DNA from: a virus
Taxonomy: Duplodnaviria; Caudoviricetes
Virus record (IMG/VR): IMGVR_UViG_3300027740_000003
Span: 288,001 to 352,000 of that record
Strand: one strand, 5' to 3'
Length of the DNA stretch: 64,000 nucleotides
How positions within the stretch are numbered: position 1 is the stretch's first letter; each line of letters opens with the position of its first letter. Both the position numbers and the translations under genes were made by a program. The notes beneath the pieces were generated by a model that was not told where the DNA came from, searched no databases, and was given only the letters and a program-made list of their open reading frames with translations. Of the stretch, positions 21,394-56,248 are shown piece after piece.

Positions 21394-24300
21394 TTAATAC
21401 TTACGTCCCGCAAATGCCTGGTCAAATGCATTCTTTAACTCATCGTCATTACTTCTTGGAGAAATATAATCAGTTGATAATGCAACAGACTCTTTAATAC
21501 CTACCTCAGGAAGAGAGGCTGTTTTGGAAGGAATCCTTCCAACTGTCTCCTGAAGATATGCAAAGTTCTCATCAGAACAATTCATAATCTTCTCGACCTG
21601 ACTGCGTAAACTACGTGGGTCCCTGGCAACTAGGCCTCTTGCAGCCATGTCATAAGCAAGTTCATATGCCCTTGCTACCTTGACTTTAAGAGCCTCTTCA
21701 TTTGCAGCTGCTTTCTTTTCAGTTGTCCCTTTAACAAGCTCACTTACCCATCTGCTAGCTTCTGGATCCTTTGCTTCTCCCCAGAACTTCTTCCAATAAG
21801 ATACCGCTGCCGCATCAAGCCCCTCAGCAATCAAACCTGGGAAATCTGTCTTTGGATCAATTGTTCCTGCAAGAACTAGTTTCTGAATCTTCTCAGCTGC
21901 TTCCCTAACCTTGCCAGGTGCTTTAGTTGCTACTTCCATTGCCTTTGTATGGACTTCTTCAAGATCCTCTACCTTGGCAAGATCACCAGTTGGCTTGGTA
22001 TCAAGGTCGGTTGTAAACCCGCCCTGAGGATGTGCTTTCGATAACATGTCAGAGAAGGTAGTTCCTTTTTGGGCAAGTTTGGTCCGTAAAATATCTCTCT
22101 CTTCTCTTGTCATATTTGCAATCCTCTTTGTTGATGCTTTTGTCTTAAGTGTCTCTGCTACCTCCGTTGGAGTACCTTCTAAATCTGCTGAACCGTCTTC
22201 GTTTACCTGTACCTTGAGATCATTGCTGTCTCCACAACCAATACAGCCTTCTTCTAATACGTTCATTAGTTCATCAAGATCGTTGCTGTCTGATGCTCTC
22301 TGACCAGCTGTTGGTCTTGGTGTAATACGTTGTCCTGCATCTGGGGCTACTGGAGGAGCCACTACTGGTGCTTTTCCAGAACCTTCTTGCAAAGAATTAG
22401 AGCCCGTTGAACCTACTGGAAGAGTTCCTGTTGGCAACCTCTGTGGTTTTTGATCAATAACATCTGGAATCTCTTGAGCAGTCTTCTTAAGATTAGTAAT
22501 AGCATTTGCATATCTAACAAATGAAACCATCATCTTGTGTCCAGCCGATTTTGCTTTCTCAATGTCTGGCGATGCGTCTACAAGAAGTTCCGTAGTCATT
22601 CTAGCAGAGCTAGCTGTTCCATCACTATTAACCTTCTCAATTAGCTTTAACTCATCAGTCATATCAGAGATTTCAGCAAGAGCTTGCTTAATTCCCTTAC
22701 GAAGACCATAACTAAGAGTCTTACGCATTGAACCAAGAGTAGTTGATGCTGTTGCTACTGGTACCTCTGGAACATCCAGATCTCCTGCCTGCTCTTCTTC
22801 ATCAAGAGCTTCAACTGCTTTTTCAAGATCAGCAGAAAGATTACCTAGTTCACGAACCTTATCTTTAACCTGATCTGCTGGAGAACCCGTCTCTCCTGTT
22901 GGCTCAAAATCACCATCCGGAGGAACCGCAGCTGCTGGATTTGCAGCAGGTGTTTCGCCTGGTCCAGGAAGTGCCGGAGCAGGAGCCTGTGCTCTCTTAA
23001 CAGAAGCATTTGCTAATACTCCCTGTGATGCAGGAACTACTGTCCCAACATCTTCAATTTCAAATGGAAGATTATATCCCTGAGCAGCAAGATCTCCCCA
23101 TTCGTCAGTAGATAATGGTCTAGTTTGACCATTTGGCATCTTTACAACGAAATCGGAAGATGTATATGCTGTTTTTACTGATGCAGTGGCGTTTATTGGT
23201 CCAAGATTAACAGCTTGCCTTGCGGTATTAACAACTGCTAATAGCTCCTGCATTTCATTAGACATAAGTATTGTTCTTGCAGTAGACAGTTCTTTATTAA
23301 TTGAAGCTGATATGTCTTTACCCTGCATAAAACTAATAACTTGTCCCCAATTTCCATTAGTGTTAGCTACCTGAACTTTATAATGCAAATTAACAAGTGT
23401 CATTAAATTTGCGGCGCGGAGTTTATCACGAAGGCCTGTGCCTGCTCTATTTGGTTGGAAAGCTCCGGGACCAGCCGACTCACCAGCATCAGAATGTCTT
23501 CCTGCATTAAAGTCGCCACCAGCATAAGGATGTTCACTAGGGCTCTGGGCACCTTTAAAAATTGCCTTGGCTGTATTCACACCCTCACTTCGGATTACAT
23601 CAATCATCTTTAGACCGTAATCTTTAGTAGCAATGCTAGAATAAAGAGAAGCAACTCTTTCCTGTCCAGCTAATTCTCCAACTGTTGCAGAGAATACTAG
23701 GCGGCTCTTGCTATCATCGCCCTTAGCATATACTTGCCACTGCGAATCAGCAAGGTTATCAGAACCATCTTCATTAGAGGCTTTAATGAACTTTGCATTC
23801 AGTTTAGCTCTATTAATAAGTTTCTTGGTTTTCTCATCGTCTCCATAAAGGCCATCAATTTTTCCGACGCTGGGGAATGGAGAAGCTCCAACCATCTGCT
23901 TATCTTCTTTATCACGAATTTTATCTGAATCTTCTTTTGGATACTTTGGCTTGCCAGGAGTTGGCTCATTAACATCCCCACCACCCTGGAAGTAAGCTTC
24001 TCGCTTCCTTTGAATATTTTGCTGAGCTTTTTCTAAAGCAGCTTGTCTGCGAAAACTTCTTGCCTCAGCCTCAGAAGCAGCCCTCAGAAGCTCTTTCTTT
24101 TTCGCTTCGTCATCACCCCAAAGACCATCAGAACCTTCCTCGGAAGTCCCGAGCATCTGCTTGTCTTGAGTATTACGAATCGAGTCAGCTTCTTCTTTTG
24201 GATATTTGACCTGACCGGGAGCTGGTTCATTTACTCCGCCACCACCCTGAAAATAAGCACTCTTCTGATTAGCCATTACTGTATCCTTTTTGTTTTTGTT

Positions 24301-52505: not shown

Positions 52506-53081
52506 TTATTCAATGATATCCTTTATCATCATATTGTCTAGTATCTCTTGTTCAAATTCTTTCCAATCAGGACATAATGCTATTACGGCTATATTATATC
52601 CAGATTGTTCTATTGCAGTTTTTTGAAGTTCTTTTGAAGGGTTCTTTATAAATTGAACAGAATTTCCGTTCTGTTTAACTGCTTCTAATTGTACTTCTTC
52701 GGGAGGATTCTTTATAAATCGAATAGAATTTCCATTTTGTTTAACCGCTAATAATTGCATTTCCTTTGAAGGGTTCTTTATAAGTTGAATAGAATATCCA
52801 TATTGTTTAACTGCTTCTAATTTTATTTCTTTAGAAGGGTTCTTTATATATTGAATAGAATTTCCATTTTGTCTAACTGCTTCTAATTTAGCTTCTTCTG
52901 AAGGATTCTTTATATATTGAATAGAATATGCATTTCGTTTAACCGTTAATAATTGCATTTCCTTTGAAGGATTTTTTATATATTGAATAAAATATACGTT
53001 TTGTTTAATTGCCTTTAAACAACCTGCTTCATTTTCAGGATCAAAACCAATAACTTTTATAATTTCCTTTTTAAGATCCAT
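52506..53081 (-). CDS. 22-aa helical repeat protein (DUF4116-like) with C-terminal IKDIIE
   Basis: Six repeats of type NGNSIQYIKNPSEEVQLEAVKQ; start set at MDLKK. Confidence 0.75.
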   Translation of the reverse strand: MDLKKEIIKVIGFDPENEAGCLKAIKQNVYFIQYIKNPSKEMQLLTVKRNAYSIQYIKNPSEEAKLEAVRQNGNSIQYIKNPSKEIKLEAVKQYGYSIQLIKNPSKEMQLLAVKQNGNSIRFIKNPPEEVQLEAVKQNGNSVQFIKNPSKELQKTAIEQSGYNIAVIALCPDWKEFEQEILDNMMIKDIIE

Positions 53082-53878
53082 TTTACTCTTTACTTCCGCC
53101 AAGGTTCAGTCTTAGCATTTGAGCAATGGGAGGAGGAAGATGCGTCATCTCCACGCCACAAGGGCACATGATAGCTCCATTCCTTGCTATAGACGGTTTC
53201 ACGGTCTGCCCACACCGTTGGCACTGCACAGTGAAAGCTTTGTTTACAGGCCTGTTATGAGCCGTTTGGCCCATTGATTTCATCGACACCTTCATGAAAT
53301 GAGTGACGCCTTTTATTACCTTGCCACATGAGCCACAAATTACCTCATTAGTTGCTGTATTTAAAAGGTGTTCCCCCGATTCAAAGCAACCCTTGTTATC
53401 ACACGTTATTAAGATTCCCATGTTTTTCTCCTACATAATATATATCAGAAATTTTATTCGATTATATCCTTTATTATCATGTTGTCTAAAATTTCTTCAG
53501 CAAATTCTTCCCAATCTGGACATAACATTATTATTTTAATATCATATTTAGATTGTTCTATTGCTAATTTTTGAACTTCTTTAGAAGAATTCCTTATAAA
53601 TCTAATAGAATTTCCGTTCTGTTTAACTGCTTCTAATTGTACTTCTTCGGGAGGGTTCTTTATAAAAAAAACAGAATCTCCTCTTTGTCTAACAGCTGCT
53701 AATTGTACTTCTTTAGAAGGATTTTTTATATATTGAATAGAAAGCGCATATTGTTTAACTGCTTCTAATTTTATTTCTTTAGAAGGGTTCTTTATATATT
53801 GAATAGAATTTCCATTTTGTCTAACTGCTTCTAATTTAGCTTCTTCTGAAGGATTCTTTATATATTGAATAGAATATG
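52799..53878. repeat. 132-nt identical direct repeat (52799-52930 and 53747-53878)
   Basis: Manual alignment; extends a further 14 nt after one mismatch. Confidence 0.85.
53083..53421 (-). CDS. Double zinc-ribbon protein
   Basis: CDNKGC, CGSC, CQRC, CPC; AGGAG RBS. Confidence 0.7.
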   Translation of the reverse strand: MGILITCDNKGCFESGEHLLNTATNEVICGSCGKVIKGVTHFMKVSMKSMGQTAHNRPVNKAFTVQCQRCGQTVKPSIARNGAIMCPCGVEMTHLPPPIAQMLRLNLGGSKE

Positions 53879-54041
53879 TATTTCGTTTAACCGCTTCTAA
53901 TTGCATTTCCTTTGAAAGATTTTTTATATATTGAACACAATTACCATTTCGATTAATAGCTTCAAAACAAGATAATTCATTATCAGGATCAAATCCTATA
54001 ATTTTTATATACAATTTTTTCAATTTATCTTTAGCTAACAT
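53454..54041 (-). CDS. Second 22-aa repeat protein (DUF4116-like) with C-terminal IKDIIE
   Basis: Paralog of 52506-53081 with six repeats and the same termini. Confidence 0.75.
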   Translation of the reverse strand: MLAKDKLKKLYIKIIGFDPDNELSCFEAINRNGNCVQYIKNLSKEMQLEAVKRNTYSIQYIKNPSEEAKLEAVRQNGNSIQYIKNPSKEIKLEAVKQYALSIQYIKNPSKEVQLAAVRQRGDSVFFIKNPPEEVQLEAVKQNGNSIRFIRNSSKEVQKLAIEQSKYDIKIIMLCPDWEEFAEEILDNMIIKDIIE

Positions 54042-55011
54042 TGTTTTCTTTTTCTAATAGTTCAATCAATTTAGAACAATCATCTGGATAATTTACATTT
54101 ATATTAAATATATGGCTGTTTTGATTGCCAGGCCCATATCCTTTCATTCCCATTTTTGTTCCATTTTTAGTCCCGGGATGAATCTTTAAAACTCTCTCTC
54201 CTTTAATTGTTTTTACCTTAACAGACTTTCCTTTTAAAGCTTCCAACAAAGAAATACTAATATTGGTCTCAATATTTTCCCCATCATCATCTAATCGCAT
54301 ATCCGGATCTTCCTCGACATGAACCAATACCTTTAAAGGACCATAATGATCTTGGTATCTTCCATTAATAAATCCCTGTGATGATCCTAGATAATTTCCT
54401 GCGCCATCAGCTGCAACAACAAACTTGTCTCGTAATGGGAAAGGAAGTTCAAAATCAATTGATACAGATTGTTTAACAGACCCGCCTCCATTACATTTAT
54501 CACAATCTATATTTTCTTTACCAGATCCTCCGCAGAAATTGCATACAATCATTTGTTGCATATTTCCTCTTTGGAATATTTTTCCTCCTTTACCATCACA
54601 ATGTGTACATTTGTTATTTCCTTTATGGTTTCCTTGCCCATTACAAGCGCTGCACTTTACATATTTATCATATGACACAGATCTCTTTGCCCCAACCATT
54701 GCTTCTATAAAAGTAAGACTAACTTCAACAACAGGATCTGGATATCTCTTTGGCCCACGGCTTTGATGAAACGAAGATATATTAATAAAATCTGCTATAT
54801 CTACCGGAAATCCGCCAAAATTACGTTCTGGTCTAGGATTTTCTAGAGTGGTTTTGGCTTCATTTATTTTTTTAAACTTCGCTTCTGCATCTGGAGATTT
54901 GTTTTTATCCGGATGCCATTCTTTTGCAAGTCTACGAAATGCTTGATTAATATCCTCCTTGCTTGCGCCGGGGGAAATACCAAGTTCTGAATATGCTTCT
55001 TCTGGTGTCAT
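54031..55011 (-). CDS. dnaJ: DnaJ chaperone
   Basis: J domain with HPD; four CxxCxGxG repeats; C-terminal domain. Confidence 0.92.
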   Translation of the reverse strand: MTPEEAYSELGISPGASKEDINQAFRRLAKEWHPDKNKSPDAEAKFKKINEAKTTLENPRPERNFGGFPVDIADFINISSFHQSRGPKRYPDPVVEVSLTFIEAMVGAKRSVSYDKYVKCSACNGQGNHKGNNKCTHCDGKGGKIFQRGNMQQMIVCNFCGGSGKENIDCDKCNGGGSVKQSVSIDFELPFPLRDKFVVAADGAGNYLGSSQGFINGRYQDHYGPLKVLVHVEEDPDMRLDDDGENIETNISISLLEALKGKSVKVKTIKGERVLKIHPGTKNGTKMGMKGYGPGNQNSHIFNINVNYPDDCSKLIELLEKENNVS

Positions 55012-55012
55012 A

Positions 55013-55679
55013 TTACCAATTGCCCTTCATCCAATTCTTTAAACTCCATATTTTTCCAGTTTTATGATCTACTACATTATCATCTTTTTCTCGATATGTT
55101 CTAACTTTATCTCCACGCATTCCAGAACCAACTTGGTTCTTCCTATTAGCGTTTCTATTATTAACTAATTCTTCTTTTTTTATAGCTTCTATTTTTTGAG
55201 ACAAAATAGCCAATGCTAATCTTTTACTCTGATATTGAGACTTTTCGTCTATTTTAACAGATATGCCTGTTGGAATATGTGTAGCAACAATACAACTATT
55301 TGTTGTATTTCTGTGTTGACCTCCAGGACCAGAACCTCGCTGATCTCTAATATCTATTTGGGACATATCAAGATTATTGATATTAAACTCTAATGGTTCC
55401 AAAACAGCCACAGTTATTGTTGATGTGTGAATTCTTCCTTTTTTATCTGTTGGAGAGCTTCTTTGGAACCTATGCCCTCCTGATTCATTTTTAAATATTT
55501 CTTTTACATTATTGCCAGAAAACAAAACAGATATAAAACCAGATTTTTTATCTAATAAAGAATAGTCAAAGACGCTCCCGCACTGCAACTTTCACATATA
55601 CTCCAAGCATATCTTCAACTAAGAGTTTTGCATCATCTCCGCCTTCTGCTGCTTTTATTTCTATTACTATCGATTGCAT
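55013..55679 (-). CDS. Class I peptide chain release factor lacking domain 1, expressed via +1 frameshift (about 221 aa)
   Basis: AGGAG RBS, then ATG 55679 MQSIVIEIKAAEGGDDAKLL...VRERL ending CTT TGA. The +1 frame continues DYSLL...ESGGHRFQRSSPTDKKGRIHTS...GSGPGGQHRN. Confidence 0.85.
55565..55580 (-). promoter_or_regulatory. RF2-type programmed +1 frameshift site
   Basis: CGG GAG CGT CTT TGA C: SD-like GGGAG three bases before CTT-TGA-C, the geometry of bacterial prfB (AGG GGG TAT CTT TGA C). Confidence 0.85.
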
Positions 55680-55693
55680 ATTGGTCTCCTACC

Positions 55694-55909
55694 TTATTCT
55701 ATTATATCCTTTATCATCAGATCAATTTCAGACAATTTTTCAAAACAACCATCGTTAACCAATACGCGAAAATATTCAATATCTCTTAGATGTCTAACAT
55801 AATTAAATTCTCTAAATTTATATTCAAACTCATAAAATCTACCAAAATTTGTTAGTTTATACAATATACCTTGATGAAAAGGTATGAAAAAACATATTAT
55901 TAACATCAC
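55694..55909 (-). CDS. Small hypothetical protein ending in IKDIIE
   Basis: 71 aa; ends IDLMIKDIIE. Confidence 0.55.
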   Translation of the reverse strand: MMLIICFFIPFHQGILYKLTNFGRFYEFEYKFREFNYVRHLRDIEYFRVLVNDGCFEKLSEIDLMIKDIIE

Positions 55910-55945
55910 AACAACACTTTTGTTTGCATAAATAATATTCTGGCT

Positions 55946-56248
55946 TCACTCAATAATATCCTTTATCATCAAGTTATCTAATATCTCTTGTTCAAATTCT
56001 TCATCAAAATTTTGCCAATCTGGGCACATAAAAACAACCCAACAATCATATTTACTTTCTCTAATTAATGATTTTTGAAAATTAATTGACGGATTTTTAA
56101 TTCCCATACCCCTACCACCTATATATGTGCTAGTAATAGAAATTCCATAAACATTTTTCTTTTTTAAACGATCTTCATAAGTAGATTCTGCCCAAGTCTT
56201 ACATAATTTGTTTTTTACCACTTGTTTTAGTTTTTCTGACATTTCCAA
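55946..56248 (-). CDS. Small protein with one repeat unit and the IKDIIE tail
   Basis: IKNPSINFQK...CPDWQNF...ILDNLMIKDIIE. Confidence 0.65.
   Translation of the reverse strand: MEMSEKLKQVVKNKLCKTWAESTYEDRLKKKNVYGISITSTYIGGRGMGIKNPSINFQKSLIRESKYDCWVVFMCPDWQNFDEEFEQEILDNLMIKDIIE

Follow-up and report, generated by a model that had tools for sequence, protein, structure and literature searches.

Can a gene that resembles a truncated release factor, is interrupted by an internal stop codon and carries a hybrid of the RF1 and RF2 recognition motifs serve a phage as a working termination factor, and which stop codons would its product read? Bacterial termination employs two factors, RF1 and RF2, of which only RF2 is under frameshift control; control of release-factor genes by in-frame read-through is a proposal that is decades old. 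The question arises at a locus in a window of 64,000 nucleotides (the whole stretch of DNA analysed here), which is part of the IMG/VR virus record IMGVR_UViG_3300027740_000003 (G000; 435,004 bp, 35% GC). A preliminary description had noticed a minimal release factor there and proposed altered or broad stop recognition, or ribosome rescue; it made no mention of a programmed frameshift, which we found to be the most informative feature of the gene. The explanation that we prefer, and hold to be reasonably probable as a whole, is that of a working phage gene for a short class-I factor, descended from the RF1 lineage with loss of domain 1, controlled by a prfB-type frameshift gate and possibly able to read UGA.

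The gene is encoded on the minus strand and comprises the following parts:

55686–55690, minus strand: ribosome-binding site AGGAG, assigned from the sequence, 6 nt before the ATG at 55679
55569–55679, minus strand: frame-0 piece, 37 codons by translation, from the ATG at 55679 to CTT at 55571–55569
55575–55579, minus strand: putative SD-like stimulator GGGAG, separated by CGT (3 nt) from the shift codon CTT
55565–55571, minus strand: putative shift site CTT_T with the frame-0 stop TGA (55568–55566), then C (55565); T55568 would be skipped
55013–55567, minus strand: +1-frame piece, 184 codons (D38 to W221), plus the TAA stop at 55015–55013
55448–55456, minus strand: tripeptide S75-P76-T77 (TCT CCA ACA), in the column of RF1 P184-x-T186 and RF2 S-P-F
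55316–55324, minus strand: catalytic G119-G120-Q121 (GGA GGT CAA), from sequence and alignment

A product of about 221 aa had been described, with coordinates 55013–55565. The length is correct as a total, but not for a single ORF, since 37 codons and 184 codons have to be joined by a +1 frameshift; the coordinates hold the 184 codons only and leave out the frame-0 piece. If CTTT is read as one step, an unbroken protein of 221 aa is obtained, which ends at the TAA at 55015–55013. The table-11 ORF on its own measures 191 aa from a TTG at 55588, and the upstream ORF of 71 aa is unrelated to release factors. The product of the frame-0 piece (M-Q-S-I-V-I-E-I-K-A-A-E-G-G-D-D ... R-E-R-L) corresponds to the first strand and helix of release-factor domain 2, as judged by alignment with residues 107–140 of T. 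thermophilus RF1, and the AlphaFold2 model places a helix at residues 15–34. Because this piece encodes the G-G-x-D tip, the counterpart of the U1 reader G116/E119 of RF1, the downstream ORF alone would miss part of the codon reader. The remainder of domain 2, the GGQ domain 3 and domain 4 are contained in the +1-frame piece.

The junction between the two pieces reads GGGAG-CGT-CTT-TGA-C (55579–55565, minus strand). The cassette of E. coli prfB is AGGGGG-UAU-CUU-UGA-C (PMC5009743, PMC12421855), and its SD-like element, 3-nt spacer, CUU_U, UGA and 3′ C all recur in the putative cassette of the phage gene. From the sequence, full-length reading is predicted to be possible only via a prfB-style +1 ribosomal frameshift at the internal UGA, and by analogy with prfB the phage gate would act as a sensor of UGA termination. 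In contrast to prfB, the phage cassette belongs to an RF1-type gene of a phage, and the shift is located at codon 37, inside domain 2 and where a Trp or Phe is conserved, whereas prfB shifts at codon 26, before domain 1. The stop codon of the gate is TAG in some phage relatives and once TAA, while TAG is absent from 8,164 prfB genes (PMC12421855); the phage relatives also include in-frame read-through versions. The requirement for a +1 frameshift likewise sets the gene apart from prfA, for which a 2025 survey of more than 12,000 genomes found no programmed frameshift (PMC12421855), and a 2016 review gives in-frame-UGA control of bacterial release-factor genes as unknown (PMC5009743).

In a strict search of both strands of the 435 kb we counted two such cassettes against 0.35 expected. 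The second one, at position 21407 of G000, consists of an ordinary RBS and an ATG, so it forms no coding junction and was discarded. We also looked for a 3′ RNA stimulator: a segment of 131 nt that contains the shift site gave no more stable fold than its shuffled versions (z +1.2), which fits an SD-stimulated shift. The interruption could in principle have arisen by accident, either in the assembly or because a release-factor gene in decay gained or lost 1 nt: one assembled metagenomic record was examined for this locus, and its table-11 ORF is truncated. This is contradicted by the position of the break, which coincides with an exact SD-N3-CTT-TGA-C cassette, and by the recurrence of the cassette, which dozens of diverged contigs, obtained from separate samples, have at this codon too. 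One of these carries L224, a gene of 89% identity whose cassette is retained apart from a single base change that turns the spacer codon CGT into TGT (in frame 0, Arg into Cys). Moreover, both the piece before and the piece after the shift are conserved at the protein level. We consider a broken gene or assembly error highly improbable.

A protein search for relatives gave thousands of matches. The best 120 of these are all 160–230 aa long and share one architecture, with the tripeptide PPT in 81, SPT in 15 and PPN in 13 cases. Relatives are encoded by 391 IMG/VR contigs, many of them 100–466 kb long; a single-protein query against the viral contigs returned no match, and an alignment query was required. 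Three-frame translations of 81 genes were scored against an HMM of the family, and 74 of the genes proved to have a premature stop at or near codon 37. A +1 shift at exactly codon 37 is required in 29 genes (43–60% protein identity), the consensus of which is cGGAGG-nnT-CTT-TGA. Another 45 genes keep one frame and contain an in-frame TGA, rarely TAG, at codon 37–52; an internal stop is absent in 7. These data show that the gene in the window is split between two frames at a prfB-type junction, and that a stop gates the same codon in about nine tenths of related phage genes. For these genes we use the working name 'stop-gated short release factors of huge phages'. The window protein shares the family traits of about 220 aa, no domain 1, a [P/S]-P-[T/N] tripeptide, a stop near codon 37 and membership of one clade, and its gate is TGA, the commonest one. 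In relatives the release-factor gene mostly resides inside the phage tRNA array, in some cases beside a tmRNA and an amber suppressor tRNA gene; here it is found outside the tRNA array, with replication genes around it and a DnaJ-like gene downstream.

Our literature search yielded no paper that describes this family, nor one that speaks of a 'phage-encoded release factor' with this meaning. There are reports of 'release factor 1 and 2' in huge phages (PMC7162821) and of RF1 or RF2 in recoded phages (bioRxiv 10.1101/2021.08.26.457843), truncation, frameshift and internal stops being mentioned in neither; to all appearances the family has not been described before. Among viruses the closest precedent is the class-I release-factor gene of Mimivirus and Megavirus (Jeudy 2012, PMC3521657), in which internal stops are passed by frameshift and read-through, a structure that the authors interpreted as autoregulation. 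In contrast to the phage protein, that factor is of the eukaryotic/archaeal eRF1 type and belongs to an amoebal virus, and the proteins are not homologous.

The in-frame stops of the relatives are located where homologues and E. coli RF1 have Trp, and their flanks vary synonymously. This position would also be expected from an alternative code in the phage or its host, with TGA read as Trp and no regulation involved, and recoded phages with release-factor genes are known (bioRxiv 10.1101/2021.08.26.457843). In order to examine the code, we compared the ORF coverage under code 11 with that under TAG, TGA or TAA read-through for G000 and for two relatives with in-frame stops, G001 (354 kb) and G002 (318 kb), 200 kb being sampled from each of the latter. 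Code-11 ORFs cover all three well, and TGA ends 30–40% of the ORFs in G000 and G001. Among ORFs of at least 150 aa in G000, TAA is the stop in 174, TGA in 144 and TAG in 32, so that about 41% of the long ORFs end in TGA. We found no Pfam domain that spans a TGA or TAG in 18 read-through candidates, and none across an in-frame TAG in 8 candidate genes of G000. G001 and G002 use the standard code with tRNA-Trp(CCA) only, no UCA tRNA being found, and the other Trp codons within the gated genes are TGG. The internal stop therefore represents a gene-specific gate. In the window gene itself sense reading of TGA would be insufficient, as a change of frame is needed. Recoding was rejected, and we regard it as very improbable; the preliminary description had concluded from the long ORFs of the window that code 11 fits, and this holds over the whole 435-kb genome.

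G000 encodes 21 tRNAs, including an amber suppressor with anticodon CUA and a normal 7-nt loop (148687–148760), plus a tmRNA (97812–98149) whose tag reads A-N-D-N-A-D-L-T-A-A-A-A. A further tRNA (79260–79333) has a 6-nt anticodon loop and was called Stop|Leu by ARAGORN.

Next to the gate, the protein itself indicates what kind of factor is encoded. The window gene contains the only RF-1 domain of the 435-kb genome. Pfam assigned RF-1 with an E-value of 3.2e-20 and PCRF with 2.1e-19, the latter for the C-terminal half only. The NCBIfam models scored in the order RF1, RF2 and PrfH, all below their cut-offs: NF001859 and TIGR00019 for RF1 gave 186.9 bits against 400 and 181 against 423.25, TIGR00020 for RF2 gave 110.3 against 370, and TIGR03072 for PrfH gave 90.2 against 166.65. 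A PDB sequence search resulted in the same order (RF1 131 bits, RF2 84, PrfH 58), and the AlphaFold2 model (pLDDT 91.7) superimposed with TM scores of 0.91–0.92 on ribosome-bound RF1, 0.85 on RF2 and 0.71 on PrfH. Bacterial RF1 (PrfA, TIGR00019 / NF001859; T. thermophilus RF1 in 4v63) shares domains 2, 3 and 4 with the phage protein at 35–37% identity, as well as the GGQ and the decoding loop H-R-x-Q-R-x-[tripeptide]-x-x-x-G-R-I-H-T-S; the corresponding loop peptide of the window gene, on the minus strand, is R-F-Q-R-S-S-P-T-D-K-K-G-R-I-H-T-S. Several features of the preliminary description were borne out here: the GGQ is intact (residues 119–121, 55324–55316), S-P-T occupies the column of RF1 P-x-T and RF2 S-P-F in a MAFFT alignment with bacterial RF1, RF2 and E. 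coli PrfH, and domain 1 (about 105 aa in RF1) is missing, the PCRF match covering only 101–194 of 194 and the NCBIfam RF1 match starting at 104 of 347. Together with scores of less than half the equivalog cut-offs and a separate clade, this distinguishes the phage protein from RF1.

The third-base pocket and stacking roles of Q181, H193 and T194 are known from established ribosome structures of RF1 and RF2. Residues equivalent to T. thermophilus RF1 are G13 (G116), D16 (E119), Q72 (Q181), S75 (P184), P76 (V185), T77 (T186), H84 (H193) and T85 (T194). The RF1 codon readers G116, Q181, T186, H193 and T194 are hence kept, and the RF1 reading head is intact except that it has Ser in place of Pro184 (next to a Pro at the middle position) and Asp in place of Glu119. 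The residue that follows S-P-T is Asp, as in RF2 S-P-F-D, a resemblance seen in several SPT genes including that of the window. On these grounds the phage gene is predicted to encode a short (221 aa) class-I release factor for stop-dependent hydrolysis of peptidyl-tRNA. The earlier proposal of independence from RF3 was a sound one, as domain 1 is absent and truncated RF1 behaves accordingly: according to Mora 2003, cited by way of PMC1586002, RF1 without domain 1 releases peptides and does not interact productively with RF3. Because domain 1 is lost, no RF3-assisted recycling would be expected.

The phylogeny with RF1, RF2 and PrfH that had been suggested as a check was carried out with 72 distinct phage proteins, 42 bacterial RF1, 5 RF2 and E. 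coli PrfH. All of the phage proteins group in a single clade (SH-aLRT 100) that neighbors the RF1 clade (90) and is separate from that of RF2 (98), and the window protein does not fall inside the bacterial RF1 clade. PrfH is found on a long outside branch. Since the basal phage lineages have no internal stop, the gate is a derived feature. All of the 76 sampled bacterial RF1 genes have domain 1, at loci with at least 104 aa upstream, and a tripeptide P-x-T with A, V, E, K, S, T, D or Q as x; neither PPT nor a first-position Ser occurs in any of them.

The tree also bears on the idea of a ribosome rescue factor like PrfH or ArfB that acts independently of stop codons and counters host nucleases which jam ribosomes. 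PrfH (RFH, with RtcB2, in E. coli; PDB 9mor, 7sa4) is similar to the phage protein in size (both about 200 aa), in the absence of domain 1 and in the retained GGQ, and it is the third-best PDB sequence match; in addition, the phage has a tmRNA, and the genes of relatives are located near tmRNA genes. In contrast to the E. coli prfH locus, which shows RtcB pairing, no RtcB match and no SmpB match exist in the 435 kb of G000. The RF1-like decoding loop is nearly invariant in the family and differs from that of PrfH, and the PrfH model stays below its cut-off. The low fold similarity to PrfH and its long separate branch point in the same direction, and the stop-codon gate indicates stop-codon biology. 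An ArfB-type basic tail is missing; unlike ArfB, which combines a GGQ with a basic C-terminal tail and has no codon-reading domain, the phage protein has a full codon-reading domain 2/4. A search for PrfH in 201 genomes of one class gave none, and the PrfH used for comparison was therefore that of E. coli. A rescue role, which the preliminary description had considered, is not borne out and appears unlikely.

While the gene and its motif are real, broad stop specificity is plausible. According to PMC11903333, which cites Ito 2000 and Uno 2002 for this, the mutation F207T (SPF replaced by SPT) makes RF2 omnipotent, and S205P, giving PPF, loses UGA. Following this tripeptide rule of RF2, PPT should act as RF1 and SPT as omnipotent. 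The phage protein has the identical S-P-T, followed by Asp as in RF2; in contrast to the engineered RF2 F207T it is natural, has an RF1-type backbone and a codon range that is a prediction. The omnipotent SPT factors were made in RF2 or chimeric backbones, and the phage backbone is RF1-like. A natural omnipotent factor of bacterial type, in which all three stops (UAA, UAG and UGA) would be read by an S-P-T head carried on an RF1 backbone that lacks domain 1, is an idea that we advance tentatively and with considerable doubt. If true, a single small protein of the phage could stand in for the two host factors and, through the UGA frameshift gate, would hold its own production in check.

We took the internal gate codon as a natural readout of the range of the tripeptide. 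SPT is a minority variant in the family, most members having PPT. Among the first 111 gated genes, non-TGA gates were present in 6 of 11 SPT and 10 of 100 PPT genes. Pattern scans aimed at SPT loops added 48 loci, and in the final tally of unique genes the proportions were 15 of 42 for SPT, including the sole TAA gate (L215), and 9 of 92 for PPT (odds ratio 5.1, Fisher p 5.5e-4; raw values that ignore phylogeny). The SPT genes are thus gated by all three stops, TGA, TAG and TAA. On the family tree the P/S state changes about 17 times, and an independent-pairs test of tripeptide against gate codon with 7 supported pairs was not significant (p ~0.5). As the raw trend fails this test, co-evolution of tripeptide and gate is not claimed. 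The pair L027/L047 (PPT/TGA and SPT/TAG) was likewise discarded as a natural switch; 30 of 220 residues differ, and it looks like a recombinant allele. Broad recognition, as originally suggested, is accordingly favored by the RF2 F207T literature and by the three gate stops of the SPT genes, but not by the independent-pairs test; the trend of the SPT genes plausibly fits a broader stop range and does not establish it.

The same data may be read differently: Ser may be a nearly neutral variant of Pro, which also fits because the P/S position is evolutionarily labile. The protein would then be a plain RF1-specificity factor for UAA and UAG, and the UGA gate would be read by host RF2, with indirect feedback. 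This reading agrees with the retention of every RF1-type residue for third-base recognition and stacking, with the placement of the family beside RF1, and with the majority tripeptide PPT, which fits P-x-T and is TGA-gated in 83 of 92 genes. UGA should lie outside the range of PPT if the tripeptide rule holds, and since PPT genes are nevertheless UGA-gated, such a gate is no proof of self-recognition. The lability of the position and the loss of the gate association after phylogenetic control point the same way, and the loss of UGA reading by S205P in RF2 (PMC11903333) suggests that the first position matters mainly as Ser in the RF2 backbone. On the other hand, Ser never occupies this position in the 76 bacterial RF1 genes and is not freely variable there, the gate codons of SPT genes are more varied and include the only TAA, and several SPT genes are RF2-like at the next residue too (S-P-T-D versus S-P-F-D). 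We regard plain RF1 specificity as a serious possibility that falls short of being probable.

We infer frameshifting, release activity and codon range from sequence features, and our preferred explanation, the frameshift-gated factor of RF1 descent, would operate as follows. Ribosomes would translate 37 codons and pause at the weak UGA-C. When a release factor reads this UGA quickly, a peptide of 37 aa would be released; when UGA is read slowly, pairing of the SD-like element with 16S rRNA would move the peptidyl-tRNA-Leu from CUU to UUU and the full factor would be made. Slow UGA termination would thereby raise the supply of the factor. The full-length protein would enter the A site in an open RF1-like shape, its RF1-type head would read the stop codon, and the GGQ would hydrolyse the peptidyl-tRNA, without RF3-driven recycling. 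Less certain is that the Ser of S-P-T would add UGA to the UAA/UAG range of the RF1-type head, that the factor would close down its own synthesis as RF2 does, and that it would help to terminate a gene set in which about 41% of the long ORFs end in TGA. A factor with SPT that reads UGA would close the feedback loop directly, as in prfB. With UAA and UAG only, the loop would be indirect: the phage factor would take the UAA stops, which make up half of the phage stops, and host RF2 would be freed for UGA. The supply of the factor is probably tied to the efficiency of stop-codon reading in the infected cell. A point against this explanation is the amber suppressor tRNA of the phage, which would be opposed by a UAG-reading factor. 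The location of the gene outside the tRNA array also counts against it.

The family would represent a third widespread design of termination, found in huge phages: a factor derived from RF1, without the domain that contacts RF3, from a stop-gated gene. Three kinds of gate occur: the prfB-type frameshift, its amber version and, without any shift, a stop codon in frame at a Trp position. The tripeptides PPT, SPT and PPN, each variant with a built-in reporter codon, would offer a test bed for tripeptide against stop choice, and also for phage takeover or buffering of host termination. The family further raises the question whether compact RF3-independent factors could be useful in recoded strains.

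Several members deviate from the common forms of the gate. L215 (IMGVR_UViG_3300037840_000188), with the sole TAA gate seen, has the cassette cGGAGG-ggg-CTT-TAA-c, and in L235 the shift site is GTT_T-GA in place of CTT_T. L011–L013 (IMG/VR, with G002 as the 318-kb record) require read-through of both UGA and UAG, each at a Trp position, in a phage that otherwise uses the standard code. L213 and L233 carry the L066-type SPT/TAG allele and a further frame change around codon 47–76 (three HMM pieces in three frames), which could reflect decay, an assembly error or a second programmed shift. Six AT-rich loci (L014, L015, L017, L028, L029, L038) contain two in-frame UGAs in the release-factor gene, which lies within about 2 kb of a tmRNA, two tRNA-Met and one or two amber suppressor tRNAs; this arrangement looks like a compact termination/rescue module. 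Frameshift-gated mini release factors were also present on two contigs of 25–30 kb (L107 and L117, from genome_contigs) that are binned into bacterial MAGs, one Hydrogenophilales and one proteobacterial. These are probably phage contigs or prophages, and the bins may hint at hosts.

In the window, a DnaJ-like gene (54031–55011, minus strand) with a J domain and CxxCxGxG zinc fingers starts 1 nt past the release-factor TAA; because of this 1-nt gap the two genes are probably co-transcribed. Four small proteins that flank the release-factor gene (52506–56248, minus strand) share an I-K-D-I-I-E tail, and two of them are made up of repeats of the I-Q-Y-I-K-N-P-S-K-E type. Elsewhere G000 encodes an IMP dehydrogenase/GMP reductase domain protein (186236–187687) and a TubZ/PhuZ-like tubulin (218299–220068; Pfam Tubulin and TubZ-like_C).
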